In this document: positions 2,541-20,168 of the stretch, one piece after another
Numbering within the stretch: position 1 is the stretch's first letter
How the letters are laid out: each line of letters opens with the position of its first letter
Source of the DNA: Anaerolineales bacterium
GTDB lineage: Bacteria > Chloroflexota > Anaerolineae > Anaerolineales > Villigracilaceae
Length of the DNA stretch: 64,000 nucleotides
Reading direction: 5' to 3'
NCBI GenBank assembly: GCA_014860805.1
Contig: JACZJB010000104.1
Coordinates: forward strand, 13,075 to 77,074
Position numbers and translations under genes: made by a program
The notes under the pieces: generated by a model
The model's input: the letters and a program-made list of their open reading frames with translations, nothing else
Database searches by the model: none
Told to the model about the DNA's origin: nothing

Positions 2541-2545
2541 GAATC

Positions 2546-2578
2546 AAAAAAGGTCAGGCAGTGAGCCTGACCTTTTTA
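2546..2578. terminator. bidirectional intrinsic terminator between the convergent SEDS-PBP and ferredoxin genes
   Basis: 9-bp stem AGGTCAGGC (2551-2559) pairs with GCCTGACCT (2565-2573). An A-run lies upstream and a T-run downstream. Confidence 0.7.
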
Positions 2579-2588
2579 TTATTTTATT

Positions 2589-3002
2589 TTACGAACCCTG
2601 ATCGCTGTCTTTGGCGCCGTAACCTGGACCGCTCTTGAAGAACTCGTAATTGGGCTGAACATCTGCGGTGAGATCCACAACTTCACCAGCCGCAAGCTGT
2701 TTGGTGGTTTCCAAAACGACAGGCTTGCCGTGATGGTTGGTGCCTTCATAGTGGCCGGTAAGACCAACCTTGCTGATGTATTCGCCGCCCTTGGCAGTGT
2801 AGGCAGCAGGGACTTCGTCTTCGGGGAAGATGGCGGAATACGGGCATTCCGGCACGCAGGCGCCGCAATCGATGCAGGTGTCGGGGTCAATGTACATCCA
2901 GGGCCATTCTGCCACAGGCTGGCCGGGGACGATACACTCGACGGGGCACACTTCGATACAACCACGGTCACGAATGCACAAGCTGGTAATAATATGGGTC
3001 AT
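2589..3002 (-). CDS. ferredoxin family protein (Fe-S cluster binding, 7Fe-like motif layout)
   Basis: Motifs CIRDRGCIEVCP and CIDCGACVPECP. Starts with MTHIITSLC. Confidence 0.85.
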   Translation of the reverse strand: MTHIITSLCIRDRGCIEVCPVECIVPGQPVAEWPWMYIDPDTCIDCGACVPECPYSAIFPEDEVPAAYTAKGGEYISKVGLTGHYEGTNHHGKPVVLETTKQLAAGEVVDLTADVQPNYEFFKSGPGYGAKDSDQGS

Positions 3003-3092
3003 GGGATTTTTTCTCCTTTTGGGATAATAAACAACGTATTATAACTATTATAACTTTGTTTGTACTTGTGACAAGGGCGTGGTTCTTAAAAT

Positions 3093-3124
3093 AAAATCCC
3101 CTGCAGAAAATTGCAGGGGATTTT
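3093..3124 (-). terminator. intrinsic terminator downstream of SOD
   Basis: Stem TCCCCTGCA (3097-3105) pairs with TGCAGGGGA (3112-3120). A and T runs on both sides. Confidence 0.6.
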
Positions 3125-3232
3125 ATTTGGGATGTAGTAAAAAGCAGAGCGAAGAAGAAACTCAATTGCAAAGATATGGGTCAGCAGAAAGAGGAGATTC
3201 TTCGCTCCTGTGGTCGCTCAGAATGACATATC

Positions 3233-3838
3233 CTACTTTGCGGCGAATTTATCCGCAACGGCATCCCAGTTGATCACATTCCAGAAGGCGGTGATGTAAT
3301 CGGGGCGGCGGTTCTGATAGTTCAGGTAATACGCGTGTTCCCAGACGTCGATGCCCATGATGGGAGTTAATCCATCGGAGAGCGGGCTGTCTTGATTGGC
3401 AGTGGAGACAACAGCCAGGCCGCTGCCCTTCTTGACGAGCCAGGCCCAGCCTGAGCCGAAGCGGGTTGTGGCGGCTGTCGTGAATTCCGCTTTGAAGTTG
3501 TCGAACGACTTGAAGGAAGCATCGATGGCTTTGGCGAGTTCGCCCTTGGGAGCGCCGCCAGCCTTGGGTCCCATGATCTCCCAGAAGAGGTTGTGGTTGT
3601 AGGTGCCGCCGCCGTGATTCCGAACCACATTGCGAACGCCTTCAGGGGCGGCGTTCAGGTTGGCAAGCATTTCGACGAGGGATTTGCCAGCCAGTTCGGG
3701 GGTTTTCTCTACGGCGCCGTTCAGGTTGGTGATATATGCCTGGTGGTGCTTGGTGTGGTGGATCTCCATTGTGCGCGCGTCGATGTGGGGTTCCAACGCG
3801 TCGTATGTATAAGCAAGCTTGGGAAGTTCAAATGCCAT
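3233..3838 (-). CDS. sod: Fe/Mn superoxide dismutase
   Basis: [32 protein letters not shown] ... DVWEHAYY. I chose the internal ATG at 3838, which is preceded by AAGGAGAG. The longer ORF to 4000 reads through repeat DNA. Confidence 0.93.
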
Positions 3839-4036
3839 GGTATCTCTCCTTGAGTGGTTGTATGAAATGGTGAAACTATATTCGGGCCGAAACCCGAGAC
3901 CCTTCCCCCTACGGGGACGATGCGCCCGCTCAGGGTGACATATAAAGGATATATAATTGATTTTACTCCCTAACTTGTGCGCTTGCAAGAAATTAGACAA
4001 TTATTATACAAATATCATATAAATCAAGGACAGTGC

Positions 4037-4980: not shown

Positions 4981-5170
4981 TGCTTATATACCCTGCGGGT
5001 ACGATGTCGCCTACGGCTCCCACTCGCTGCGCTCGGGGACTGTGTCGCAATGACACGCCCTTCGACTGCCACTTCGCCTTCGCTCAGTGTCCGCTCACAT
5101 CGTCCCGACACTTGCGCTGTACGCCAGTGCGGTGTGTCCTTCGACTTCGCTCCGCTCCGCTCAGGACGGA
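4981..5170. repeat. intergenic cluster of REP-like modules (CCCTGCGGGTACGATG hairpin, TCGCAATGACAC, and two CTTCGAC..CGCTC..CGCTCAG units)
   Basis: The same modules recur at 6175-6300, 6856-6927 and 3905-3922, and inside the attC-like elements. Confidence 0.7.
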
Positions 5171-5179
5171 ATTAAATTA

Positions 5180-5650
5180 ATGGTCATTATCATCATGGGC
5201 GTTTCAGGGTCTGGGAAGAGCACAGTCGGCTCGCGGCTGGCTGAGGAGTTGGGCTGGGTATTTTACGATGCTGATGACTTCCATAACGAAGCGAACCGTG
5301 AAAAGATGTCGCGAGGCATCCCATTGACAGACGAAGACCGCGCGGCATGGCTGGCAGCGCTGCGGGAATTGATCCAAAAGAACGAGCCGTGCGTGCTGGC
5401 CTGCTCGGCGTTGAAGGAATCCTACCGCGCAACCTTGAGGGTGAACGAGCGGGTGCAATTCGTTTACCTGAAAGGCAGTTACGCCGAGATCGAAGCGCGC
5501 ATGCAGAGCCGCGCAGGGCATTTTATGCCAGTACAATTATTGAAAAGCCAATTCGAGACCCTCGAAGAACCAGGGGACGCGCTGACAGTGAAAATCACCC
5601 AGCCGCTGAAAGACATCATCCAACTCATTCGGAAAGGACTAGCATTATGA
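5180..5650 (+). CDS. gntK: gluconokinase (GntK/IdnK family P-loop kinase)
   Basis: MVIIIMGVSGSGKSTVGSRLAEELGWVFYDADDFH. The longer ORF start at 5087 reads through repeat DNA. Confidence 0.8.
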   Translation: MVIIIMGVSGSGKSTVGSRLAEELGWVFYDADDFHNEANREKMSRGIPLTDEDRAAWLAALRELIQKNEPCVLACSALKESYRATLRVNERVQFVYLKGSYAEIEARMQSRAGHFMPVQLLKSQFETLEEPGDALTVKITQPLKDIIQLIRKGLAL

Positions 5651-6174: not shown

Positions 6175-6300
6175 TCCTTCGACTTCGCTTCGCTCCGCTC
6201 AGGATGAAGTTGCTTATACCCTGCGGGTACGATGCCCTGCGGGGGAGATTGCTTCACCGCCAACGAACAAAAGCGGCGGTTCGCAACGACATGGCGCAGC
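6175..6300. repeat. REP-like module cluster (TCCTTCGACTTCGCTTCGCTCCGCTCAGGAT, GCTTATACCCTGCGGGTACGATG, TTCGCAACGACAT)
   Basis: Near-identical modules at 4981-5170. The TCGCAACGACAT module recurs at 50478-50507 and, inverted, near 22858-22875. Confidence 0.7.
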
Positions 6301-6538: not shown

Positions 6539-7144
6539 ATGGCAAAAGTGCGTTCGAATGTGCTGGTGAGGGGCTTGAGCGGGAAGTTAGGCGATCAGGT
6601 GGTGTTCCGCAATTTACGGGATGGCAGCACCGTGGTATGCGTGCCGCCCGATTTCAGCAAGAGGAAATTGAGCAAGGATCAGAAGACGCACCATGCCAAA
6701 TTCAAGGAAGCGGCGGCGTATGCGCGGGATGCGGCAAAGAGCCAGCCCATTTACGCCGAATTGGCGATTGGGACGACGAAGAATGCGTACAACATCGCGC
6801 TCTCGGACTGGTTCCATGCGCCGAGAATCCAGCGTGTGGAGCTGACGGAGGGCGGTCCTTCGACTTCGCTCCGCTCCACTCAGGATTCGGCTTCGCTCCG
6901 CTCCGCTCAGGATTCGACCTCGCTCACAATCCGCGTTTACGCCACTGACAATGTGAAGGTGGCGGGCGTGAAAGTGATCCTGCGGAGTGAAGCTGGGCTG
7001 GTTTTGGAACAGGGCGAGGCTCTGCCCGCCGAGGAAGCCTGGTGGAGCTATACGCCGCAGACGGTTTTGGAGGGCAAGCTCAAGGTAGAGATCAGGGCGA
7101 GTGACCTGGCTGGGAATGTGACTACAATCAATAAGGACGTATAA
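6539..7144 (+). CDS. hypothetical protein with a C-terminal Ig-like/beta-sandwich region; carries an in-frame REP-derived insert
   Basis: Good RBS context. The C-terminus (IRVYATDNVKVAGVKVIL...KVEIRASDLAGNVTT) looks like a bacterial Ig-like fold. The middle encodes GPSTSLRSTQDSASLRSAQDSTSLT from repeat DNA. Confidence 0.6.
   Translation: MAKVRSNVLVRGLSGKLGDQVVFRNLRDGSTVVCVPPDFSKRKLSKDQKTHHAKFKEAAAYARDAAKSQPIYAELAIGTTKNAYNIALSDWFHAPRIQRVELTEGGPSTSLRSTQDSASLRSAQDSTSLTIRVYATDNVKVAGVKVILRSEAGLVLEQGEALPAEEAWWSYTPQTVLEGKLKVEIRASDLAGNVTTINKDV
6856..6927 (+). repeat. 2.5 tandem copies of the CTTCGCTCCGCTC(C/A)(G/C)CTCAGGAT repeat inside a CDS
   Basis: Same unit as the intergenic copies at 5137-5167 and 6175-6205. 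Confidence 0.85.
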
Positions 7145-7190: not shown

Positions 7191-7751
7191 ATGTCAGATG
7201 AACAGCAAATGAGAAAGGTTGTTTTCGCAATCAACATCACGATAGACGGCTACTGCGGCCATGAAACGGGGATAGTCGACGACGAGTTGCACGAGTACTT
7301 CACCGAACTCTTGCGTGATTCAGGGGTTGAAATTTTCGGACGCAACACGTATCACTTGATGTATCCGTACTGGCACGATGTGGCCGTGAATCAATCGGAA
7401 ACGAAAGTGACCAACGAATTCGCACGTATATTCGATTCGATGCCAAAGATCGTCTTTTCAACGACGTTGAAGAGCGTAGAGTGGAACAACACGACGCTGC
7501 TCCATTCCAATCTTCGAGAAGAGATCGTGAAGTTAAAACAACAGCCAGGGAAGAATATTTCGATCGGCGGGCTGAATATCGCGGGGCAAGTCGCGCAATG
7601 GGACCTCATCGACGAGTATCACTTTGTGGTTCATCCGATCCTTGCGGGAAAAGGTCCCCGCCTGTTCGAAACGGACAGAATCCGTACATTGAAACTTGTC
7701 AGCTCGAAAGTGTTTCGTTCGGGGGTTGTCGCATTACATTATGAGAAATAA
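7191..7751 (+). CDS. dihydrofolate-reductase-like protein (RibD C-terminal domain family)
   Basis: KVVFAINITIDGY, FGRNTY, ISIGGLNIAGQ, YHFVVHPILAGKGPRLF. Confidence 0.75.
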   Translation: MSDEQQMRKVVFAINITIDGYCGHETGIVDDELHEYFTELLRDSGVEIFGRNTYHLMYPYWHDVAVNQSETKVTNEFARIFDSMPKIVFSTTLKSVEWNNTTLLHSNLREEIVKLKQQPGKNISIGGLNIAGQVAQWDLIDEYHFVVHPILAGKGPRLFETDRIRTLKLVSSKVFRSGVVALHYEK

Positions 7752-7997
7752 TCCTTTGTGAAGACCAAGGGAACATGGCGACAGTTTGCATGTTGACCTG
7801 CGAGGGGAGTGAAGTATATAATTTATTTATCCTGTGGTGGTCTTTGGGCGTTTCCCCTACGGGGATGATATAGTTGGTGACCGTCTATAAGCAGTTAGTT
7901 GGAAATGACAGTCTAAACGCTAGTTGGGCGGCTTCGCTAAACACACTTTACAGTTAAGAAATAAAAAAGATAACGCAAATAAATCTGTGTAGTGAAC

Positions 7998-9299
7998 ATG
8001 GAAAAAATTTCAAAAGCGAATTACAAAAAATACCTAAAAGCTGCGATAAAAGCTGAAAACGAACGCACTCAAGAAGATAAACAGCTTTGGCGAAGCTATT
8101 TAGAAGATTTTGAATTAATTCAAGGTTTGGCGCCAATACAAAAAGCCGAAGCTTGGCTTAAGCATGTCATGACATACAAGTTTGTTTATGATTCTCTAGA
8201 TTGGGCTTCGCAATTCATAATCAATAAGTTTGCAGACCAAGAAGCTCTTATATATTTTATAAGCAGGGGTGTTGATTGTAATAATCATGTTAAGAAAATG
8301 GTCGCAAGGCTAAAAGAGCATAAAAAAGAATCGGAGTCTTTCTGGAATTTTTTAGAAACAAAGTCAGATAACGAGCTAAAATTTTTCGGGTTTCAAAAGA
8401 AAAAAACACGTACAAGAAAAGCAGATAGAGACGCCTCATATTATGCTGCCTTGTCAAGAAGTTCTTTCTCGCTTGCAAACGATGACGAAGCATACACAGT
8501 TGCCTCCATGATTAGAACCTTTCAGTGGTGTGACATAGGAGGATACGATATGGTTTGGAGAGAATATGCCAACAGATTAAATGAGGATGTAAACAGAGGC
8601 GGAGAAATAAACTCAGAAATAGCGAGTCACATGTTGTTTGATGTTTGTCGTTCAGATTTTGCTATTGAAGTTATGGGGGATAATCTTGTAAAACTCCTTG
8701 ATATTGTAGAAATGCCAGATTATCAACTAACCATCCCATGGCACCGTTGGAATTATGATGACATAAGTCTAAGGGCTGGTATAAAAACTAATTCGATTTT
8801 TGCTTACGCTGCCAGCATAGCCTTTGCTGAAAGAAGACTTCGACAAGATAAAACAAATCAAGAATTAGTTGAAAAAGCATTGAAATGGCTATTAGAAGTA
8901 CAGGAAGAAAATGGAGCTTGGAAAATTTCAACATTACTAGACCAACCTTCAATAATGGGAACATGCATGGTAGTTCACGCCCTCGCTATCAATAAACCTA
9001 AAGGGTGGAAATTAGCAGTATCACAAGCATGTTCTTGGTTAGTATCACAGCAAGACAACTTTGGGTTTTGGTATGAATCGCCTTTTCCATCTACCGACCC
9101 AATATATTTAACTGTTTTAGTTTTGGATACTCTTAACTTGGCGGAAGAAAATCCAACCCTAACTTTTAGAATTGAAGAAAAATATAATACTGCTGAGAAA
9201 ACAGCACAAATCAACATTAATGGAAATGTTTCCAGAAGCACTATAATTGTCGGAAATGACAATACAATCCAAAGAAAAAAGAAGGTAAAAAAGGTGTAG
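7998..9299 (+). CDS. cassette ORF: unknown N-terminal domain fused to prenyltransferase/terpene-cyclase-like alpha/alpha-toroid repeats
   Basis: Repeats ALKWLLEVQEENGAWK and ACSWLVSQQDNFGFWY resemble squalene-cyclase/prenyltransferase repeats. AT-rich codon usage. Confidence 0.6.
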   Translation: MEKISKANYKKYLKAAIKAENERTQEDKQLWRSYLEDFELIQGLAPIQKAEAWLKHVMTYKFVYDSLDWASQFIINKFADQEALIYFISRGVDCNNHVKKMVARLKEHKKESESFWNFLETKSDNELKFFGFQKKKTRTRKADRDASYYAALSRSSFSLANDDEAYTVASMIRTFQWCDIGGYDMVWREYANRLNEDVNRGGEINSEIASHMLFDVCRSDFAIEVMGDNLVKLLDIVEMPDYQLTIPWHRWNYDDISLRAGIKTNSIFAYAASIAFAERRLRQDKTNQELVEKALKWLLEVQEENGAWKISTLLDQPSIMGTCMVVHALAINKPKGWKLAVSQACSWLVSQQDNFGFWYESPFPSTDPIYLTVLVLDTLNLAEENPTLTFRIEEKYNTAEKTAQININGNVSRSTIIVGNDNTIQRKKKVKKV

Positions 9300-9336
9300 T
9301 TGTTTTTAGAGAGACAGTCTTGGCAAAATCAAAACC

Positions 9337-9571
9337 GCCCAACAAAGCGTCCCGATAGAACTGGGATGATCACCTGACCTCTTCTGTCCTTCGGACATCT
9401 TACCGCTCGCAAAGTACGCTCGGGTACGATGTCCCCTAAAGGGGAAGACTCAGCCATAGCCTTTTTCTGGCTGGACGGCTTCGCCAAGTCCACGCAACGG
9501 GGCAGGTATCCCCTTCGGGGACGATGTCCCACTCCGCTTCGCTGCGGGGATGATATCGCAAGCCGTTGGGC
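9337..9571 (+). repeat. attC-like site 1 (235 bp)
   Basis: 5' GCCCAAC-AAA-GCG and 3' CGC-AAGCC-GTTGGGC. The R'' and R' boxes are perfectly complementary. Confidence 0.55.
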
Positions 9572-9684
9572 AGTTCCTTACAGAATAAGTTCCAGAAAAG
9601 CAGAGAATAAAATCGAAATCGGTTTATAGGTTTACGCATACTTTACTTAATTAATTTATCACTGCCCACTATAAGGAAAGTAAA

Positions 9685-10197
9685 ATGAGTGCAATTTTTG
9701 AGATTTCAGGCTTAAATGTTTATATACAAATTGTAGTGACCATTATTTCAATTGCAGTGCATCTATTCGCCACACGAAACAAAAGACGTGCGGAATCTGC
9801 GCTTGAATTAATCACTCTCTATACAATAGGGCTTGCAGGTTGGTTCACTATAACCAGTGGGTTTTTCGGTCATATCATTTATGCAGATGAAGTCGCTATT
9901 TCTATTGGCTGGCCATTGCACAGCGGTTTTCAAATGGAATTGGCATTTGCGGCAATCGGAATAGGCATCGTTGGATTTGGTGGCTTTTGGAACAAGTCCT
10001 TTTGGCTCCCTTTCATCATTGCAAAAACTTCCTTTATGTTGGGCGCTGGAATTACCCACATCATCCACATGGTTCAAGATAATAACTTCTCGCCCAGCAA
10101 TACAGGTATCATTCTCTATTGGGATATCCTTTTACCTATTATTTTGATTGCCTTATATATATTCTATCGTCTCGAGCAAAGTGTTTTACAACAATAG
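9685..10197 (+). CDS. cassette ORF: small integral membrane protein (about 5 TM), unknown function
   Basis: Hydrophobic throughout. RBS AAGGAAAG lies upstream. Confidence 0.65.
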   Translation: MSAIFEISGLNVYIQIVVTIISIAVHLFATRNKRRAESALELITLYTIGLAGWFTITSGFFGHIIYADEVAISIGWPLHSGFQMELAFAAIGIGIVGFGGFWNKSFWLPFIIAKTSFMLGAGITHIIHMVQDNNFSPSNTGIILYWDILLPIILIALYIFYRLEQSVLQQ

Positions 10198-10237
10198 GTT
10201 AACTTTTATAAAAATAAAGAATTGAGTAAATGACACT

Positions 10238-10393
10238 GCCCAACAAAGCGTGCACTGGACGCTGGGGATTCTGTCGCATTTTCAAGCATTTTTCTGGCTT
10301 CGAGTTTATACTGCTCCCAAGCAGAGTCCACGCCCACCCACACGCAGGTATCCCACTCGCTCCGCTCAGAGACAGTGGCGCAAGCCGTTAGGC
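10238..10393 (+). repeat. attC-like site 2 (156 bp)
   Basis: 5' GCCCAAC-AAA-GCGTGCACTG and 3' CAGTGGCGC-AAGCC-GTTAGGC. The L boxes pair with unpaired bases. Confidence 0.6.
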
Positions 10394-10414
10394 GCTACAC
10401 TCAAAATAGTTTCT

Positions 10415-11647
10415 ATGCATATAACAATTCTTGCTCTTGGTTCGCGCGGTGACATTCAACCCTATGCCACACTTGGCAATGGGCTAAAATCTGCTGGACA
10501 TCAAGTTCGTTTTATTACCTTTGAGAGTTTTGCTTCTCTTGTTGCTGAAAACAAACTCGACTTTCACCCTATTCAAGGAAACGCACAAGCATTAGTCGCC
10601 AACGGAGGGGCAGACATGCTTGGTCTCATACGGTCTTTTGGCTCTCTTGCAGGAGGCTATGCCCGCGATTTGTCTGTACCTCAGTTGGGTGAAACAGACC
10701 TTATCATTAATCAATTGCCAATGGGTTTATACGGCTTAGACTTGGCAGAAAAATATGGTGTTCCGATGGTGCTAGCGTCTGTAATTCCAGTGGCTCGAAC
10801 CAAGACGTTTCCGCTTATGGGATTTCCTAAACTTCCTTTGCCAGGCTACAACAAAGCAACATACTATCTAGGCGAACAAATAGGATGGCAAATGTTTCGC
10901 ACTGTAATTAATCGTTGGCGTAAACAAACGCTCAATCTGCCTCCACTACCCATAGCAGGTTACTTCGGACAATTAGGAACGCGCCAGATTCCAATCGTGA
11001 ATGGGTTTAGTCAGCATGTGGTTCCGCACCCAGTCGATTGGAACGAGCATATCCACATCACAGGCTATTGGTTTCCAGAAGACGTGCATTGGCAACCGCC
11101 AAATGATTTATCAGGATTTATTGAAGCAGGCAATCCGCCTGTGTTTATTGGTTTCGGAAGTATGCCAATAAAAGACCCGCAACGAACCACTAATATCATT
11201 CTCGAAGCCCTAAAACAGACTGGGCAACGCGGAATTTTACATATGGGTTGGGGCGGTCTTGGAAATCAATCATTACCTGATAATGTTTTCGAAATTGATT
11301 ACGCCCCTTACGATTGGCTGTTTCCACGAATGGCTACGGTGATTCACCATGGCGGTTCAGGAACAACTGCTTTTGGTCTTCGTTCTGGCATACCATCCTG
11401 CGTTGTATCGTTTGTATTTGACCAGCATTATTGGGGAGAACGGATCGCTGCGTTGGGAGCGGGTCCGAAACCCATTCGATATAAGGAACTGACTGTCGAA
11501 CGTCTAGCGGAAGCTATTCGCATCGGCGTTGGCAACTTTCGAATAAAGCAAAAAGCTGCTGAACTTAGTCAAAAGATTCAAGCAGAAAATGGAATCAAAA
11601 ATGCGCTGACCATATTTGAAAAGATGTTATGTACTAATTCAGCATAA
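10415..11647 (+). CDS. cassette ORF: GT1-family UDP-glycosyltransferase (MGT/sterol-glucosyltransferase-like)
   Basis: MHITILALGSRGDIQPYATLG ... HHGGSGTTAFGLRSGIP. The ORF-track start at 10250 reads through attC-like site 2. Confidence 0.85.
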   Translation: MHITILALGSRGDIQPYATLGNGLKSAGHQVRFITFESFASLVAENKLDFHPIQGNAQALVANGGADMLGLIRSFGSLAGGYARDLSVPQLGETDLIINQLPMGLYGLDLAEKYGVPMVLASVIPVARTKTFPLMGFPKLPLPGYNKATYYLGEQIGWQMFRTVINRWRKQTLNLPPLPIAGYFGQLGTRQIPIVNGFSQHVVPHPVDWNEHIHITGYWFPEDVHWQPPNDLSGFIEAGNPPVFIGFGSMPIKDPQRTTNIILEALKQTGQRGILHMGWGGLGNQSLPDNVFEIDYAPYDWLFPRMATVIHHGGSGTTAFGLRSGIPSCVVSFVFDQHYWGERIAALGAGPKPIRYKELTVERLAEAIRIGVGNFRIKQKAAELSQKIQAENGIKNALTIFEKMLCTNSA

Positions 11648-11716
11648 ACGCGTCAAATGAAGTTGCATCTAATCTTTTATGGAAATTATATGTAGTAAGA
11701 TTTTAGGAGACCGCCA

Positions 11717-12340
11717 ATGAATAAGAAAGAAAGTGCATCCTCGACAGCCTTAACTGGTAAAAGCAAAAACTCCAATAAATCATCGAGCAATGCGATATGG
11801 GGTCAAGATTACCGAAAAGGGTTTGGATTTCTTGCGCTCATGGTTTTGGATTTTGTGATATTAACATATTATTATATGCTTTTACATGGGATTGATTTAT
11901 TCGTGCTTTTAAGGCAGCCGCCAACCGCATTGACCTTTGATTATATTGGAGGAAGTGCTAATGCCTTTTCAGTTGGTAGTGAGATTGTGTATTGGGCATT
12001 GATAGGGGTTATATGTCAAATGGCGTATTTGGCTGGACGAACGCTTATTGAAGGGAGTTTCGATTTTTGGAAATCATTTTTTGGCTGGATAGGAACCAGT
12101 TTGTATGCGGTCGGGACAGCCATCGCCGTGATCTTCTCACTTAAAATAGTTTCAATTAACATTGCCGATATAAAAATCACATTGGCAGACGCACCCATCG
12201 AGGTCATTATCGCCATTTCAATCATATTGGGATTTTATAGCGAGGAGTCTCGTCGATTGCTGGGTAGACTTCGTAGGCAAATCGTGAGCGGAATGACCGC
12301 TGAAGGTGAAGAACATGAAAAAGACAAGGCACATCAATAA
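11717..12340 (+). CDS. membrane protein, unknown function (same cassette as the glycosyltransferase)
   Basis: RBS AGGAG. About 4 TM segments. No attC-like element lies between it and the GT gene. Confidence 0.6.
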   Translation: MNKKESASSTALTGKSKNSNKSSSNAIWGQDYRKGFGFLALMVLDFVILTYYYMLLHGIDLFVLLRQPPTALTFDYIGGSANAFSVGSEIVYWALIGVICQMAYLAGRTLIEGSFDFWKSFFGWIGTSLYAVGTAIAVIFSLKIVSINIADIKITLADAPIEVIIAISIILGFYSEESRRLLGRLRRQIVSGMTAEGEEHEKDKAHQ

Positions 12341-12416
12341 CGGTTAAGTACCTTTAAAGATACAAAATCAAAATATTGTTGGCAGGTCAAAGTACAAAGT
12401 GAGCAAAAAGAAAAGC

Positions 12417-12689
12417 GGCTAACAAAGCCTCCCGATAGAACTGGGATGATATGCAACTGACCTCTTCTGTCCTTCGGACATCTACCACGCGCTCCGCTCG
12501 GGTACTATGTTCCCCTAAAGGGGAAGACTCAGCTTTAGCCTTTTTCCCTGGACTGTCCGTCCACCTGTGCCTGCGTCAAGGTGCAGGCAGGACAGGCTGG
12601 TTGGACGGCTTCGCCAAGTCCACGCAACGGGGCAGGTATACCCTAACGGGGACGATCCTCTACAAGGACTTTGCCGCAAACCATTGGGC
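12417..12689 (+). repeat. attC-like site 3 (273 bp; both core boxes carry one mismatch)
   Basis: 5' GGCTAAC-AAA-GCC and 3' GCCGCAAACC-ATTGGGC. The interior shares modules with sites 1 and 4. Confidence 0.5.
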
Positions 12690-12724
12690 AGTTCCTTGGC
12701 ATATAACTTCTTAAGGATTAACTG

Positions 12725-13225
12725 ATGAAGAAATCTGAACTTTTGAATTGGTTTCAAGAAGAGTATCAGCGTTGGGAGTTACTCCTTGCTGCAATTGGTC
12801 AAAAACGTATGACTCAGTCAGGCGTAAATGGTAAATGGGCAATGCGAGACATAATTGCTCACCTAACAGGTTGGCAATTAAATCTTACGAATCAATTCAT
12901 CGCGGCGATGAATGGAGAGTTAGAATCACCTCCCCCTTGGTCAAAAGAGCTAAAGAGTGAAGATGATATTAATGCCTGGATATATGAAACAAATCGCAAG
13001 AAAGATTTAGGACAAGTCTTGGAAGACGCGCGCCAAGTTCATGAAAAAATGCGCGACGCAATTAGTAACTTACCAGATGATATTCGGATTGAGACAATTG
13101 ATTCAAAATTTCATGTAGTTTATATAAATGACCAACGATTCGCTGTTGGTGAGTTCTTTCATCATTTCTATGATGACCATCAGTCTGACGTGCGCACTTG
13201 GTTATCAAGAACAGAGAACGAATAA
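12725..13225 (+). CDS. cassette ORF: DinB-superfamily four-helix-bundle protein (ClbS/DfsB-like)
   Basis: WAMRDIIAHLTGWQ motif, and the size and helix pattern fit. Confidence 0.6.
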   Translation: MKKSELLNWFQEEYQRWELLLAAIGQKRMTQSGVNGKWAMRDIIAHLTGWQLNLTNQFIAAMNGELESPPPWSKELKSEDDINAWIYETNRKKDLGQVLEDARQVHEKMRDAISNLPDDIRIETIDSKFHVVYINDQRFAVGEFFHHFYDDHQSDVRTWLSRTENE

Positions 13226-13301
13226 TTGTCGTGATAGGCAGAACAAAAGCCCAATGTATTTCGGCTCTTATAATAGCAAAAGAGTCTTATGGCTAAAACC
13301 T

Positions 13302-13520
13302 GCCCAACAAAGCGTCCCGATAGAGCTGGGATGATATGCACTGGACGCTGGGGACTGCCGCCTTCGGCGGCGTGCGCAAATCTCAAGCAGTTTTACACGC
13401 TTTATCATTTTTCCCTGGACTGTCCGTCCACCTGTGCCTGCGGCAAGGTGCAGGCAGGGCAGACTGGTTGGACGGTGTCCCATTCGCTGCACTCAGGGAT
13501 GGTAGCACAAACCGTTAGCC
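13302..13520 (+). repeat. attC-like site 4 (219 bp)
   Basis: 5' GCCCAAC-AAA-GCG and 3' GCACAAACC-GTTAGCC. Confidence 0.5.
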
Positions 13521-13555
13521 CACTAGATATGTTTTTCCTCCAGAAGGAACAAAAA

Positions 13556-14857
13556 ATGAGACTATACAGGATCATCTTCATTATCAGTACAATAATTTTG
13601 GCGACTCTTGCCTGTAGAGTAGGACAGCGAGCTGAAGCTCATCCATCAACAATCTCCGCTTCGCCAGCGCAATCTGAAAAACTCGAACCTACAGAATCAT
13701 ATGAACCAACCACTTTACCATCTCCAACACAGACTCCCAATCCTTTCCCAAACCCCATACTCAAGATCGTTGGCGAAGAGGAAATCGTTTTTGATTGGAC
13801 AACTGATCGTTGTGCAAACCACAATATTCCAGACCTGCCATTGCGGGCATTTCGGGGTCTGGATGGGCAGGTTCAAGCGATTATTAGCAGCGACAATAAT
13901 TATCGTATGCTTGGCCCAGACTTGAATGATCTGACAATCGATTGCAATCCGATCATGACATCCAAATATGATCCCGACCCATCTCGGTATACTGACGCCC
14001 AATGGGTTGCAGCGCCTTACACTGAAGATGGACAAACGGTCTACGCGTTGGTGCATAACGAATATCAGGGACATACCCATCCCGGGCAATGTCCGCAAAA
14101 TGATTATTTCTCGTGCTGGGACAATTCGATTACGCTCGCGATTTCTATTGATGGCGGCAAAACCTACACAGAGTCGCAAACTCCTCCCTCACATCTGGTT
14201 GCGCGATTCCCATATCCGTATGAGGCTGGTGCGGGTCCCGAAGGTTTCCGAAGTCCAAGTAATATCATTAAGGGACAGGATAATTATTACTACAGCTTTT
14301 TCAATGTCAGCGAATATGGAACCCAAAAACAATGGGTTTGTCTGATGAGGACGGATGATCTGAGCCTGCCGGCGTCATGGCGATTTTGGAATGGAACAGC
14401 ATTTGAAGGTCAAATCGCCGATCCATATACGGATGATGTCAGCAATCCAGAGGCGCATATTTGTCCACATATTGACCAGGTGGGGAATACCAGCGAATCA
14501 TTGAGTGAAAGCATCACCTATAACACATTCCTTAAACGCTATGTGCTGGTTGGCATCAGCGCCGATTGGCTGGATAACCGGGAGGTCTGGGGTTTTTACT
14601 ATTCATTCTCTGATGACCTTATACACTGGACGCACAGAAAATTACTGCTAGAAATCGAACTTCCGTGGACCGTCGAATTCCCCGGCTCGGATCTTTCGTA
14701 TCTTTACCCCAGTTTGCTTGATCCCGAAAGTGAGTCACGCAATTTCGAGACGACGGATAACACAGCCTATCTATACTACACTCGCAACAATTTTGGTCAC
14801 GGCAGCCTGGATCGCGACCTGATCCGCGTCCCGGTTGAATTCTTTCCGTCACCATAA
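13556..14857 (+). CDS. cassette ORF: secreted/lipid-anchored protein with an Asp-box (BNR-like) motif, unknown function
   Basis: Signal/lipobox-like MRLYRIIFIISTIILATLAC. SIDGGKTYT Asp-box. The ORF-track start at 13289 reads through attC-like site 4. Confidence 0.65.
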   Translation: MRLYRIIFIISTIILATLACRVGQRAEAHPSTISASPAQSEKLEPTESYEPTTLPSPTQTPNPFPNPILKIVGEEEIVFDWTTDRCANHNIPDLPLRAFRGLDGQVQAIISSDNNYRMLGPDLNDLTIDCNPIMTSKYDPDPSRYTDAQWVAAPYTEDGQTVYALVHNEYQGHTHPGQCPQNDYFSCWDNSITLAISIDGGKTYTESQTPPSHLVARFPYPYEAGAGPEGFRSPSNIIKGQDNYYYSFFNVSEYGTQKQWVCLMRTDDLSLPASWRFWNGTAFEGQIADPYTDDVSNPEAHICPHIDQVGNTSESLSESITYNTFLKRYVLVGISADWLDNREVWGFYYSFSDDLIHWTHRKLLLEIELPWTVEFPGSDLSYLYPSLLDPESESRNFETTDNTAYLYYTRNNFGHGSLDRDLIRVPVEFFPSP

Positions 14858-14918
14858 CAAGTTTGCAAAAGATTATCCTACATCCTTGAATTCAACCACT
14901 GTAATAGGTGTCAACACG

Positions 14919-15023
14919 GGCTAATAAAGCGTCCCGATAAAACTGGGATGATATCCCTTTCGGCGATGATATGCAGTGGACGCTGGGGATTCTGCGCGAT
15001 TTACAAGCATTTTCCTGGCTTCG
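14919..15023 (+). repeat. attC-like site 5, degenerate and 3'-truncated
   Basis: 5' GGCTAAT-AAA-GCGTCCCGATAAAACTGGGATGAT. It shares GCAGTGGACGCTGGGGATTCTG and CAAGCATTTTCCTGGCTTCG with site 2. No R' box is present. Confidence 0.4.
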
Positions 15024-15108
15024 TGCAAAATTGTGACTTGATATAATTTACTCTCTTTTGACGGAACCTTATTCGCCTACTCATCGTCGTTCTCTGCAAG
15101 GAGAAAAA

Positions 15109-15873
15109 ATGAAGAAAATAATTTACCTGCTTCCTTTACTACTAGGCATTCTTGCCTGTGGAGCACAGCCTCAGCCACCCCAGAATGTGTCTGATATTGT
15201 TAATGCCACTTTAACTGCGATTGCTCAAAATAACCTGCAAGTTATTACACCACAAACTATTATCGCAACAACTACTATTGAACCAACAATGCCAGGCGTT
15301 ATTTTAACAACCCCTTCCGTTCCAACTGCCTTTTCACCAATACATACATCAACCGCCTGCTCTGCGAATTGGTTTTTCGCTTTCGATAATAACCATCTCT
15401 CACTGGCTTCCTTTTGCCCCGAACCAGCCAAGTTGCTGGAAGCCGTAGGGCAGGATTTTGAAGGAGGCCGGGCATATCGTTATGCGCCTGACCCGTCGTA
15501 TCCTGCCGATCAAAGAGGGACGGTATATATAATCTATAATAATGGGGAATGGGTCACATATCCAGATAATTGGGATTCCAGTCAACCTTCCAGCGACACA
15601 AATCTGGTAGCTCCTAATGGGCGTTATCAACCCGTTGACAGCATAGGCAAAGTTTGGCGTGAAAATGCAGACGTTCGCAATCGGTTAGGCTGGGCATACG
15701 AATCTCAAAGCCAGTTCTCAGGGAGATTTCAATCTTACTTGGTGCAGCAAGGCATACCAAGTGGAGATACTCATTTTTTCTTCATAGACCATGGCCAATG
15801 GGGAATGGTGTTGTTGCTCAATTCAGTGGACATGGGTCCAAACAAATGGGAAGTAGCAGGATATTACCAATAA
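15109..15873 (+). CDS. cassette ORF: lipoprotein, unknown function
   Basis: MKKIIYLLPLLLGILACG lipobox. RBS GGAGAAAAA. Confidence 0.7.
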   Translation: MKKIIYLLPLLLGILACGAQPQPPQNVSDIVNATLTAIAQNNLQVITPQTIIATTTIEPTMPGVILTTPSVPTAFSPIHTSTACSANWFFAFDNNHLSLASFCPEPAKLLEAVGQDFEGGRAYRYAPDPSYPADQRGTVYIIYNNGEWVTYPDNWDSSQPSSDTNLVAPNGRYQPVDSIGKVWRENADVRNRLGWAYESQSQFSGRFQSYLVQQGIPSGDTHFFFIDHGQWGMVLLLNSVDMGPNKWEVAGYYQ

Positions 15874-15878
15874 AAAGT

Positions 15879-15925
15879 CAACCGACAAAGCGTGCAGCAT
15901 GCACTTGATGCTGGAAGCTGACCGA
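15879..15925 (+). repeat. remnant of an attC-like 5' end
   Basis: CAACCGACAAAGCGTGCA... compared with GCCCAACAAAGCGTGCA of site 2. Confidence 0.3.
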
Positions 15926-15945
15926 ATTACATAAGGATTAAATCT

Positions 15946-16956
15946 ATGACCAATGATTTGATTGAAATCAATGCTACACCTGCTATTCCAGGGTTAAGAT
16001 TTCGTCACTTTCGCGGACCGACCGACTACCCTTCCATGTCCACTGCCATCGCTCTCAGCGCCGATGCAGATCAGGTGGAACGCGTCGCCACGGTCGAAGA
16101 TATTGCAATGTCCTACACCCATTTGACCAACAGCGACCCATATCACGATATGATTCTTGCCGAAATTAATCATGAGGTAATTGGGTATTCGCGCGGCTGG
16201 TGGTTCGAAGAAGAAAACGGACCTCGTCTGTATGCGTTTGTCGGGTTTCTGGTTCCTGCCTGGCGACGAAAAGGAATCGGTCGGGAAATGCTGCGTTGGA
16301 TGGAAAACCGTTTACGGGCCATTGCAACAGAACATCCCGCTGAACAGGAGAAATTCTTTCAATCTTTTGCCACACAATATGAAGTGGGCTTGGCAGCTAT
16401 GCTGGAAAATGAAGGCTATCAGCCCGTTCGCTATAACTGGGAAATGGTGCGTCCGACATTAGACAATATCCCTACCTTCCCCATGCCTGAAGGCTTGGAA
16501 ATTCGCCCTGTGCTCCCGGAACATTATCGGGCAATCTGGGACGCAGCCACTGAATCTTTTCGCGATCATTGGGGATTTTCACATCCCACTGAGGAAGATT
16601 ATCAAGATTGGCTGACAGACAAGAACATTTTTCAGCCAGACCTCTGGCAGGTCGCCTGGGATATGGCGACGAATCAAGTAGCGGGACAGGTCCGCCCCTT
16701 TATTTATCATGCTCAGAATGAAAAATTTAACCGTAAGCGGGGCTTCACGGAGTCTGTCAGCGTTCGACGACCATGGCGAAGACGCGGGCTGGCGCGGGCT
16801 CTCATCGTGCGCAGCCTCGAAGCACAAAAGCAGCAAGGTATGACAGAATCTATTCTCAGTGTGGACAGTGAAAACATAAGTGGTGCGACCCGTATATATG
16901 AAGACTGTGGTTTTCGGGTAGTAAAGCGAAATACCATCTATCGAAAAGCGCTGTAA
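15946..16956 (+). CDS. double-GNAT N-acetyltransferase (MshD-like architecture)
   Basis: Two acetyltransferase halves (VPAWRRKGIGREML and RRPWRRRGLARALI). Confidence 0.75.
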   Translation: MTNDLIEINATPAIPGLRFRHFRGPTDYPSMSTAIALSADADQVERVATVEDIAMSYTHLTNSDPYHDMILAEINHEVIGYSRGWWFEEENGPRLYAFVGFLVPAWRRKGIGREMLRWMENRLRAIATEHPAEQEKFFQSFATQYEVGLAAMLENEGYQPVRYNWEMVRPTLDNIPTFPMPEGLEIRPVLPEHYRAIWDAATESFRDHWGFSHPTEEDYQDWLTDKNIFQPDLWQVAWDMATNQVAGQVRPFIYHAQNEKFNRKRGFTESVSVRRPWRRRGLARALIVRSLEAQKQQGMTESILSVDSENISGATRIYEDCGFRVVKRNTIYRKAL

Positions 16957-17012
16957 TACAGCACTAGATACAGGCATTAGGGTTAAAGTTTGCTCAGCAA
17001 AGCATACCAAGC

Positions 17013-17038
17013 AAAACGCCTCTTTCGAGGCGTTTTGT
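17013..17038. terminator. bidirectional terminator (GNAT / malQ)
   Basis: AAAACGCCTC-TTTC-GAGGCGTTTT. Confidence 0.7.
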
Positions 17039-18543
17039 TATCTTTTTGACAGCCAATTCACATCTCTCAAACCTGCCGCATAATCTTCGCGCAAATCGTT
17101 TTCACTCATGCGCCATTCCCAATTGCCGCCCAGTTTGCTGGGGAAATTCATACGCGCTTCCCCGCCCAGACTAAGCACATCCTGCATGGGAGTAATCGCA
17201 AAAACCGCAACAGACTTCCAGACAGCGCGAATCAGATCCCAGGCGAAGTCGCGACCATCCACGCCAAGATAACGATGAGCAAAGTCACGTTCGTGGTCGG
17301 GAGCGGACGCATGCCAACCCACGGCCGTATTATTATCATGCGTCCCAGTGTATGCCACACAATTGGGAATGTAATTATGCGGCAGGAAGGGGTTGTCCGG
17401 CCCTGTAAAACCAAATTGCAAAACCTTCATACCGGGCAGGTCAAAAGCCTCCAATAACTCAATAACGTCGGGAGTGATAACGCCCAAATCTTCTGCGATG
17501 ATGGGAAGATCTGCGCCGGGCGCAATCAATCCCTCTCCAAGAAATTTTTCCACAACGCGGAACAAATCCTTGCCGGGGCCGGGCACCCAACGTCCGTTTT
17601 CCGCGGTTGTGTTTTCAGCGGGTATCTCGTAATAACCCGCAAAACCACGGAAGTGGTCAAAGCGCAGAATATCCATAAACTTCAGTGATGCGCGCACCCG
17701 TGAAAGCCACCAGGCGTAATTTTCCTTTTTATGCACTTCCCAGTTGTATAACGGGTTGCCCCACAATTGCCCCGTAGTGGAAAATAAATCAGGCGGGACT
17801 CCTGCAACAACGGTCGGGTTGCCGCTTTTATCAAGAAAGAATAAGTCGGGATTCGCCCACACATCCGCAGAGTCATACGCCACAAAGATGGGAATATCGC
17901 CGATGATCTGAATCCCTTTTTCATTTGCATACTTGTGGACTCTATCCCACTGCCTGAAGAAAAGAAATTGATAAAAGGAATAGCGCATGATGCTTTCCGC
18001 CAATTCTTTTCTGGCTTTCGTCATTGCTGTTTTTTTTCTGGAACGCAGCGCTTCGGACCACCCGTTCCATGAGCCGCCGCCATTGGCTTCTTTCAACGCC
18101 ATGAAAAGGGCAAAGTCATCCAGCCAGGCCGCGTTGTCAGCACAGAAATGGTCGAAGGCTTCACGCAAGTGCTCAGGGTTGGTTTGGAAACGGGAAAATG
18201 CCTTTTGCAAAAGATCCAATTTTTTTGGAATGAGCAAGCCGAAGTCCACGCGAGAAGCGGGAAGTTCCTTCAGTTCATTCAGGTCATCCTGAGACACAAG
18301 CCCATCCGCATGCAATTCATCAGGACTTAATAAATAAGGATTTCCAGCGAAAGCGGAAAAACATTGATACGGCGAATCGCCATATCCTGTGGGACCCAAA
18401 GGTAAAATCTGCCAGAGTTTGCAGCCCGTGGACGCGAGCCAATCGACAAAACGAAAAGATTGAGATCCAAGATCGCCAATACCATACGGACCGGGCAAAC
18501 TGGAGGGGTGAAGAAGAATTCCAGAAGAACGTTTAAATGCCAT
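17038..18543 (-). CDS. malQ: 4-alpha-glucanotransferase (amylomaltase)
   Basis: SSGILLHPSSLPGPYGIGDLG, GDSPYQ, GDIPIFV, TGTHDN. Confidence 0.93.
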   Translation of the reverse strand: MAFKRSSGILLHPSSLPGPYGIGDLGSQSFRFVDWLASTGCKLWQILPLGPTGYGDSPYQCFSAFAGNPYLLSPDELHADGLVSQDDLNELKELPASRVDFGLLIPKKLDLLQKAFSRFQTNPEHLREAFDHFCADNAAWLDDFALFMALKEANGGGSWNGWSEALRSRKKTAMTKARKELAESIMRYSFYQFLFFRQWDRVHKYANEKGIQIIGDIPIFVAYDSADVWANPDLFFLDKSGNPTVVAGVPPDLFSTTGQLWGNPLYNWEVHKKENYAWWLSRVRASLKFMDILRFDHFRGFAGYYEIPAENTTAENGRWVPGPGKDLFRVVEKFLGEGLIAPGADLPIIAEDLGVITPDVIELLEAFDLPGMKVLQFGFTGPDNPFLPHNYIPNCVAYTGTHDNNTAVGWHASAPDHERDFAHRYLGVDGRDFAWDLIRAVWKSVAVFAITPMQDVLSLGGEARMNFPSKLGGNWEWRMSENDLREDYAAGLRDVNWLSKR

Positions 18544-20094: not shown

Positions 20095-20168
20095 GGGTGC
20101 CTGAAGGGTTTCGAACCCTCAACATCTACAGCCACAGTGTAGCGCTCTGCCGTTGAGCTACAGGCACC
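20095..20168 (-). tRNA. tRNA-His (anticodon GTG) with encoded G-1
   Basis: Manual cloverleaf: G(-1)+GTGCCTG acceptor, GCTC/GAGC D-stem, CTACA-CTGTGGC-TGTAG anticodon arm, GAGGG-TTCGAAA-CCCTT T-arm. Confidence 0.9.

Follow-up and report, generated by a model that had tools for sequence, protein, structure and literature searches.

Introduction

Sedentary chromosomal integrons can carry long and homogeneous attC sites, of which the Vibrio cholerae repeats (VCRs, ~125 nt) are an example, and foreign DNA is known to insert specifically into attC in the form of IS1111-attC insertion sequences and group IIC-attC introns. Enterobacterial repetitive extragenic palindromes (REPs) with their bacterial interspersed mosaic elements (BIMEs), and cyanobacterial small dispersed repeats (SDRs), are short self-folding intergenic repeats that occur in mosaic or tandem arrangements, nest within one another and are oriented with transcription. 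To our knowledge, the integrons of Anaerolineae, an abundant environmental and wastewater lineage, have been annotated and little studied, and we know of no description of small dispersed hairpin repeats occupying integron attC sites. attC-site clusters without an integron integrase (CALINs) in general, as well as integrons of Chloroflexi, are already in the literature (PMC4889954). Here, we analyse a 64,000-nt stretch of an Anaerolineales bacterium (contig JACZJB010000104.1 of assembly GCA_014860805.1, positions 13,075–77,074; hereafter the window), in which a preliminary description, made from the sequence alone, had placed an integrase-less, integron-like cassette array with unusually long attC sites.

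We read the block at 7.9–15.9 kb of the window as an integron cassette cluster without a nearby integrase (a CALIN) on an Anaerolineae chromosome, with a probability of about 0.88. As in the CALINs described by Cury et al (2016; PMC4889954), there are at least two co-oriented attC sites within 4 kb and no intI within 4–10 kb, and the open reading frames (ORFs) are compact, promoterless-looking and functionally unrelated; no antibiotic-resistance cassettes were identified among the array ORFs using Pfam. The window array differs from those CALINs in that its attC sites, at 156–273 nt, lie partly beyond the usual size range of IntegronFinder and hold nested hairpins, in that two of its sites are truncated, and in that its host belongs to Anaerolineae and not to Proteobacteria. 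With sedentary chromosomal integrons it shares a clade-specific, homogeneous attC (median 130 nt) with a long, branched and variable terminal structure, an array of small AT-rich ORFs and, in Anaerolineae, an intI located beside housekeeping genes. Here the differences are the lack of an integrase in the window, an unpaired spacer of 3 versus 5 nt instead of 5–6 nt in each arm, and the use of the first extrahelical-base loop as a hot spot for hairpin insertion. The element is of a known kind (a CALIN from sedentary Anaerolineae integrons), and nested hairpins as the cause of attC length are a modest new twist. For Anaerolineae, what the analysis adds is a cassette array without an integrase, along with a 130-nt attC family that is well defined.

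A co-oriented array of attC elements and small genes

The cluster comprises four complete (E1–E4) and two truncated (E5 and E6) sites, all on the + strand and 0.9–3.1 kb apart (Table 1). Each complete element opens with the inverse core R'' (GCCCAAC at 9337, 10238 and 13302; GGCTAAC at 12417), directly followed by AAAGCG or AAAGCC, and closes with the core R' (GTTGGGC ending at 9571, GTTAGGC at 10393, ATTGGGC at 12689 and GTTAGCC at 13520), just 5' of which stands CGCAAGCC, CGCAAACC or CACAAACC. The ends can be summarised as YYAACAAAGC(G/C) on the left and C(G/A)CAA(G/A)CC(G/A)TTRG(G/C)C on the right. E1–E4 begin 38–77 nt past stop codons and end 22–113 nt before the next start codons. R'' and R' pair at 7/7 positions in E1, 6/7 in E2, 4/7 plus one wobble in E3 (the R box of which has 2–3 mismatches) and 5/7 in E4, and a spacer of AAA against AAGCC or AAACC is present in all four, unpaired in the family consensus fold described below. 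The preliminary description had given these coordinates, cores, lengths and codon distances, the complementarity of R'' and R' and the asymmetric, unpaired central spacer, and all of them were reproduced.

The right-end 15-mer, allowing up to 3 mismatches, has 9 copies against 2.3 expected, a count reached in 0 of 100 shuffles, and a 21-nt internal module has 4 copies against 0 expected. Copies of the element are all on the + strand and confined to 9.3–16 kb, with none in the remaining 55 kb. At 156–273 nt, the window sites exceed the attC length criterion of 57–141 bp; the parent family, at 124–140 nt, is treated in the next section.

The array occupies an AT-rich block at ~7.9–16 kb, with a GC content of 0.36–0.48 per bin or ORF, as against 0.51–0.58 for the bins and 0.55–0.59 for the genes to the left, and ~0.45–0.55 to the right. 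All ORFs of the block are co-oriented and compact, and their Pfam assignments agree with those made earlier from the translations. Where eight array ORFs had been counted, seven hold, in six cassettes; the eighth, encoding a double GNAT protein, is a conserved flanking gene (see below). Four of the cassettes end in a complete attC, and the last two end in an attC without its 3' half. Three decayed copies had also been proposed, of which those at 14919 and 15879 are indeed truncated attC sites (E5 and E6), but the one at 16992 gives way to an intrinsic terminator (Table 1). Cassette 3 contains two ORFs, and neither the element search nor the family covariance model found an attC between them.

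The cassette products are all uncharacterised. Defence cargo had been raised as a possibility, but PADLOC gave no credible match to a known defence system for any of the seven cassette ORFs (best E ~0.004). In agreement with the preliminary description, tblastn with IntI1 and XerD found no tyrosine recombinase in the 64-kb window (best E > 3). An Rfam scan of the window at gathering thresholds matched tRNA-His alone, with no Rfam match to the elements.

A 130-nt attC family linked to Anaerolineae integron integrases

One internal module, M1 (TCCCGATAGAACTGGGATGATA, 21–22 nt), stands directly after AAAGCG in E1, E3, E4 and E5. Species-representative genomes were scanned with M1 (TCCCGATARARCTGGGATGAT), which gave nine loci in metagenome-assembled genomes (MAGs) of Anaerolineae or Anaerolineales (loci are cited by L numbers). 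In five of the nine (L005–L009), M1 lies within elements that share the ends of the window elements, and in L006 such elements form an array with small AT-rich ORFs, two of the elements being just 130 nt long. When metagenomes were scanned with the left end of this short form, at least 120 loci were returned. From the metagenome loci listed and the MAG loci, we extracted 77 distinct sites of 124–140 nt (median 130). Among the loci listed, 30 have at least two strict matches; in every one of these the matches share one orientation, and their median spacing is 999 bp.

The RNAalifold consensus of the 77 sites consists of an R box, an unpaired spacer (AAA versus AAACC), an L box of 4+5+8 bp, in which a GC/A internal loop and a bulged A both fall on the R''/L'' arm, and a terminal region of ~75 nt that is unpaired or variable. 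Read along the top strand, the family has R'' (RYYYAAC), AAA, L'' (GCGT-GC-ACCTG-A-CGCTGGGG) and the ~75-nt variable terminal structure, followed on the 3' side by L' (CCCCAGCG-CAGGT-A-ACGC), AAACC and R' (GTTRRRY). The GCG/CGC 'stubs' noted earlier are the outer part of this 17-bp L box. Within the canonical family, four of the five modelled R-box pairs are invariant, and compensatory double changes occur at nine pairs (for instance CACCTGACGCTGGGG/CCCCAGCGCAGGT, CACTGGACGCTGGGG/CCCCAGCGCCAGT, CACCTGACGTGTGGG/CCCACACGCAGGT and CAGTGGATTTGCGGG/CCCGCAAACCACT). R'' position 4 shows no covariation with its R' partner (CG 25, UA 21, CA 17, UG 14), as would be expected were each G|TT crossover to exchange the last six bases of R'. 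The bulges of the canonical family are G/C and T on the bottom strand, 5–6 bp apart, and the same arrangement has been described for attC extrahelical bases (PMC5027507); the usual attC spacer is 5–6 nt, and that of the family is shorter on one arm (PMC5027507). The 130-nt family is a textbook attC, very homogeneous and used by sedentary chromosomal integrons of Anaerolineae.

The window elements are homologous to this family. In spliced alignments to the nearest canonical site, identical positions number 106/123 for E1, 118/129 for E2, 102/123 for E3 and 109/130 for E4; E5 has 72/81 and is unaligned thereafter. Over the canonical columns, E1–E5 show 82–91% identity, broken by discrete insertion blocks. 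When the 77 sites were made into a family-specific covariance model, E2 matched it at 70 bits (E = 2.6e-16).

Several loci of the family also encode integron integrases. Full-length IntI1 homologues (tblastn, 47–51% identity over ~320 aa) are found in L020, L043, L072 and L115, and IntI fragments in L021 and L074 (tblastn with IntI1). The four full-length proteins score 449–465 bits on TIGR02249, 'integron integrase', with the whole model covered (the cut-off is 265 bits), and the intI product of L138 scores 402 bits. Counting L134, L136 and L138, family attC sites adjoin TIGR02249 integrases (402–465 bits) in seven loci. In six of these, intI is divergent from the cassettes, with the classical geometry in L043, L020 and L115; in L072, intI and a single attC match lie on the same strand, ~4 kb apart.

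Proteins closely related to the L043 IntI carry the annotation 'integron integrase [Anaerolineae bacterium]'. Three of them, encoded on longer contigs, are located at contig ends and flanked on one side by housekeeping genes. In L134 and L136, attC sites of 71–120 bits lie on the side opposite the housekeeping genes, and in L135 no attC match was found. The intI genes in these Anaerolineae MAGs are located at or near the contig ends (L134:1-1934, L135:1-1274 and L136:1-4323). This position fits assembly breaks in repetitive attC arrays, so cassette arrays are probably systematically under-assembled in these MAGs.

A ClbS cassette with boundaries at the core sites

The ClbS-like ORF of cassette 4 has homologues 87–93% identical in L137–L142, where the neighbours differ and at least four other contexts are represented. 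In L138, a metagenome contig, the order is intI, a 179-aa cassette, ClbS and DUF1003 (624–3655). In L137 and L139, which are without intI, ClbS and DUF1003 follow a response-regulator/guanylate-cyclase gene and a 171- or 150-aa ORF, and in L141, ClbS stands between a 127-aa ORF and the PEMT and GNAT genes. L142 is a long array with 10 covariance-model matches of up to 107 bits.

When the window is aligned with L141 and L142, similarity begins exactly at CC(A/G)TTGGGC, which is the R' of the preceding site, and stays at ~90% across the ClbS 5' leader, ORF and 3' untranslated region (UTR). In L141, it extends over the cassette's own R'' and AAAGCG and breaks down within the attC. Judged from these alignments, the ClbS unit, the one cassette of the six that was examined in this way, behaves as a gene cassette with boundaries at core sites, and this is the outcome of the junction comparison among relatives that the preliminary description had proposed. 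The recurrence of ClbS, together with the attC-family homology, the co-oriented arrays, the TIGR02249 neighbours and the 70-bit score of E2, bears out its view of the block as an integron-type array.

L137 (6045–9248) belongs to MAG STL-CHL2, in which at least two integrase-less arrays are in view (L006 and L137). At L142:4066-4522, an unrelated stretch of ~200 nt with two tiny minus-strand ORFs interrupts the attC of the ClbS cassette exactly at R'' (GCCCACCGATAAACC...) and may be a different kind of attC insertion.

Hairpin modules and the length of the sites

The unusual length reported for the window's attC sites is real but not intrinsic, as these sites are long because self-folding hairpins of 20–50 nt, some of them nested, were inserted into a site of normal length. 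Besides M1, one or more hairpins are found in the 3' arm of E1, E2 and E3, between CAGGTA and CGC, and the terminal structure of E3 and E4 contains a 51-nt hairpin that equals a shorter L006 hairpin with another hairpin nested within it. The internal loop with the first extrahelical base is the main insertion hot spot, on both arms, and the terminal structure is also hit. Within the single array of L006, M1-bearing and M1-free sites share identical flanks, a filled and empty pair that amounts to an insertion polymorphism. M1 occupies the same attC position in L005–L009, lies in non-attC mosaic repeats in L001–L004, and is absent from all of the metagenome loci listed (120).

Units of the form CCCC-loop-GGGG-AYGATRT, and CCTTCGACTTCGCTCCGCTCAGG, are also present in ordinary intergenic DNA of the window (3900–3935, 4990–5175, 6175–6250 and 7850–7870). 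Since the same unit form occurs there, we read the modules as small dispersed hairpin repeats of the host, and the most likely account is that such host-specific repeats have colonised the attC sites, in which case 130-nt sites would have been lengthened by modules entering the extrahelical-base loop and the terminal structure. The intergenic units look like a genome-specific REP/BIME-like family, and the same unit types are nested in attC. The window modules share the traits of REPs, BIMEs and SDRs, but their sequence family (CCCC-loop-GGGG-AYGATRT) is a different one. They differ from IS1111-attC elements and group IIC-attC introns in being 20–50-nt non-coding hairpins without a transposase or reverse transcriptase, and in being nested, host-specific and found in ordinary intergenic DNA as well.

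Other hosts carry other hairpins. At the position of M1, L141 has TCCCCGAAGATCGCGGGGATAA (in two sites) and L138 has TCCCGGAAAATGTTGGGATAA, in a site ~0.6 kb from intI. Each genome has its own attC decoration, uniform across its sites, and arrays linked to an integrase carry such decoration too. Such host-matched hairpins suggest either repeated site-specific colonisation or concerted evolution of attC within a genome. The same ClbS cassette can be followed with a host-specific hairpin at the same attC position in L141:8580-8990, L138:2228-2386 and the window (13315–13335), and each of these variants agrees with the remaining attC sites of the array in which it lies.

The intergenic hairpin units of the window are GC-rich, all on the + strand, and mosaic or tandem (e.g., CCCCCTACGGGGACGATGC, ATACCCTGCGGGTACGATG and GTCCTTCGACTTCGCTCCGCTCAGGA). 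A repeat, CCTTCGACTTCGCTCCGCTC...CTCAGGA, stands in tandem at 6857–6925 inside the ORF at 6539–7144, where it translates as STSLRSTQDSASLRSAQDSTSL, and is found again at 5138–5165, inside the listed ORF at 5087–5650, at the 5' end of a gluconokinase-like ORF. Either the reading frames accommodate these repeats or the ORFs there were called too long. An older array at 3.9–7.9 kb, where modules lie on the same + strand, was considered and rejected, as this region has no R''/R' or covariance-model signal and a GC content of 0.55–0.59.

Predicted folding, present state and competing explanations

By analogy with other integrons, the substrate of an IntI tyrosine recombinase would be the single (bottom) strand of attC in folded form, cut between G and TT of R', and cassettes would leave as circles and re-insert at attI. 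The capacity of a site to fold was expressed as pfold, the ensemble probability that the R box and the first 3 L-box bp form, using DNA parameters. Canonical sites have a median pfold of 0.38 on the bottom strand and 0.69 on the top strand, with a 10th percentile of 0.015. The bottom/top values are 0.004/0.025 for E1 and 0.015/0.009 for E2, and pfold falls to 3e-9 for E3 and 5e-8 for E4. Relative to canonical sites, folding to the recombinogenic form is predicted to be less likely by a factor of 10 to 10^8. In the spliced alignments, the window sites keep 15–19 of the 22 consensus pairs (18/22 in E1 and 15/22 in E3; the canonical median is 22) and 11–15 of the 17 L-box pairs, and the first bulge holds the M1 hairpin in E1, E3, E4 and E5. 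Considering that there is no integrase in the 64 kb, that two sites are without R' and that predicted folding is impaired, the array appears partly decayed. It is probably a partly decayed cassette store, which at best an integrase encoded at another locus could mobilise in trans, and E1 and E2 might still be substrates for such an enzyme.

Several points weigh against reading the block as a CALIN in this state. In minimum free energy (MFE) folds of single-stranded DNA, E1 alone closes its R box and E2–E4 do not, and the z-scores of whole-element folds are weak (−2.8 to +0.6). By these predictions, the whole elements are not simple palindromes. The covariance model recognises E2 alone as a full site, gives fragments for E4 (21.8 bits), E5 (20.3 bits) and E1 (14 bits), and has no match to E3 or elsewhere in the window; as the model cannot span the insertions, it is an unfair test of E1, E3 and E4. 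L'' and L' of E2 resemble a mismatched hybrid of two subtypes. The term integrase-less holds for the 64-kb window only, out of a contig of about 78 kb, and an intI elsewhere in the genome is possible. Activity or inactivity is judged here from thermodynamic predictions, and the hairpins may have spread by transposition, gene conversion or slippage, each of which is possible.

Standard detectors, which have a size limit of about 200 nt and one covariance model, can miss or fragment attC sites that hold nested host repeats, so cassette censuses in such lineages may be underestimates.

The alternative that survives best is an active split integron, in which an intI elsewhere in the genome would reshuffle the cassettes in trans and the decorated attC sites would be fully functional; we regard it as possible, though unlikely. 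For about half of CALINs, Cury et al (2016; PMC4889954) report an IntI encoded in the same replicon or genome. The hairpin at the M1 position in L138 is close to a bona fide intI, and in different contexts the ClbS cassette is bordered by attC sites that carry hairpins. E1 and E2 keep their R boxes and most of their L-box pairs, but E3 and E4 are predicted to fold with a probability of only 10^-8 to 10^-9, the R box of E3 is mismatched, and E5 and E6 have no R'. In addition, intI is absent within 8 kb to the left and 47 kb to the right.

A further alternative, which we find doubtful, is that the hairpin-decorated attC is a working attC variant of Anaerolineae integrons, with repeats inserting into the loops of folded attC and IntI tolerating them. 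Host repeats of 20–50 nt would then prefer single-stranded loops, chiefly the first extrahelical-base loop on both arms, and the bulge would become a three- or four-way junction. The uniform decoration within a genome and its difference between genomes would, on this account, point to a very small element that targets folded attC or to concerted remodelling host by host. If decorated sites do still recombine, the structural tolerance of IntI would extend to branched sites with a hairpin in place of an extrahelical base.

Generic intergenic repeats of the REP, BIME or miniature inverted-repeat transposable element (MITE) kind, with the RYYYAAC and GTTRRRY ends a coincidence, would suit the internal modules, which are dispersed hairpins also found outside the array, and the whole-element MFE folds, which are not strongly palindromic, but this explanation is very improbable and already contradicted by the data, as the bounded elements are missing from the other 55 kb, are co-oriented and each follow a stop codon, their backbone is 82–91% identical to a 130-nt family arrayed beside integron integrases, and a cassette is bounded exactly at R'. 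It is likewise hardly credible that the elements are structured RNAs of 3' UTRs (terminators, stabilisers or an unknown non-coding RNA) that act on the upstream genes at the RNA level: they do lie on the sense strand 38–77 nt past stop codons and consist of GC-rich hairpins, and the compensatory changes fit an RNA or a single-stranded DNA fold alike, but the elements have no Rfam match, their hairpins are without T-tracts (the true terminator at 17010 excepted), and the linkage to IntI and the cassette boundaries at G|TT would be left unexplained.

Edges of the array and flanking genes

Table 1 Features of the cassette cluster and its edges, in window coordinates.
Feature	Position	Strand	Basis or remark
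Promoter-like site TTGACC-18-TATAAT, candidate Pc-like, pointing into the array	7793..7822	+	sigma-70 consensus match only
Left boundary, possible attI-like remnant ending in GTTGGGC (7923-7929)	7883..7930	+	Smith-Waterman
Cassette 1 ORF, 433 aa, alpha-alpha toroid (SQHop_cyclase_C-like) C-terminal part	7998..9299	+	Pfam; GC 0.36
attC E1, 235 nt, canonical attC with M1 (9350-9370) and several more hairpin modules	9337..9571	+	
Cassette 2 ORF, DUF6790 membrane protein	9685..10197	+	Pfam, E = 1.4e-34
attC E2, 156 nt, canonical attC with one ~28-nt insertion (CCCACTCGCTCCGCTCAGAGACAGTGG) in the 3' arm	10238..10393	+	
Cassette 3 span, two ORFs	10415..12340	+	Pfam
Cassette 3, first ORF, GT1 glycosyltransferase	10415-11647	+	Pfam
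Cassette 3, second ORF, 207-aa membrane protein, unassigned by Pfam	11717-12340	+	Pfam scan
attC E3, 273 nt, M1 (12430-12450), 51-nt nested hairpin and other modules; R box mismatched	12417..12689	+	
Cassette 4 ORF, ClbS/DfsB (DUF1706/DinB-like) protein	12725..13225	+	Pfam
attC E4, 219 nt, M1 (13315-13335), 18-nt GC hairpin and 51-nt hairpin; L' arm diverged	13302..13520	+	
Cassette 5 ORF, 433-aa secreted protein, no Pfam match	13556..14857	+	Pfam scan
E5, 5' half of an attC: R'', M1 (14932-14952), second small hairpin, L'', start of the variable terminal structure; R' gone	14919..15023	+	
Cassette 6 ORF, lipoprotein, no Pfam match	15109..15873	+	Pfam scan
E6, ~35-nt stub of an attC 5' end (CCGACAAAGCGTGCA...)	15879..15915	+	
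Double-GNAT gene, flanking, not a cassette	15946..16956	+	GC 0.50; homologue distribution
Intrinsic terminator between the GNAT and MalQ genes	17010..17039	+	13-bp stem, then T run

On the left side, the promoter-like site matches 11 of 12 hexamer positions and is the best in 7.0–17.2 kb. The lone GTTGGGC at 7923 is present as reported, but whether it marks the left edge is ambiguous. The segment that ends in it is identical to the attI region of L043 at ~36/50 nt and is the best local match in the window, if barely (25 versus 23), and 7919–7940 is 86% identical to an internal attC segment. A blastn-short search with three attI regions had no match in the window, and tblastn found no IntI fragments in the window that would represent a delta-intI remnant.

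The ORFs to the left of the array encode an FtsW-PBP fusion, a ferredoxin, a superoxide dismutase (SOD), and EamA, gluconokinase, YbaK and RibD_C proteins. The RibD_C gene (7191–7751, GC 0.48) is immediately left of the array. RibD_C-like proteins that are 31–37% identical to its product are encoded inside attC arrays of L013, L028, L079 and L107. The window gene might be an old cassette that lost its attC, although no attC signal there supports this. To the right, a tRNA-His (GTG) gene at 20095–20167 on the − strand lies 3 kb from the array, with no adjoining integrase or att-like repeat seen.

At E <= 1e-40, homologues of the double GNAT protein number 6120, and their identity grades smoothly across Anaerolineae. 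Its relatives that are 81–87% identical (L130–L133) have no nearby attC and differ in gene order. Given this gradient, the GC content of the gene and the lack of attC near its relatives, we conclude that it is a conserved chromosomal gene and not a cassette. The RibD_C protein encoded beside GNAT in L130 is 26% identical to that of the window and hence a paralogue, and no clean 'empty site' was found through GNAT synteny among the relatives examined. A block that is invariant between relatives, as the preliminary description had allowed for, is not what was found: in L008, where the GNAT protein is 90% identical, a complete attC R' lies directly upstream and the preceding cassettes are entirely unlike those of the window, so cassette content at the GNAT locus varies between relatives.

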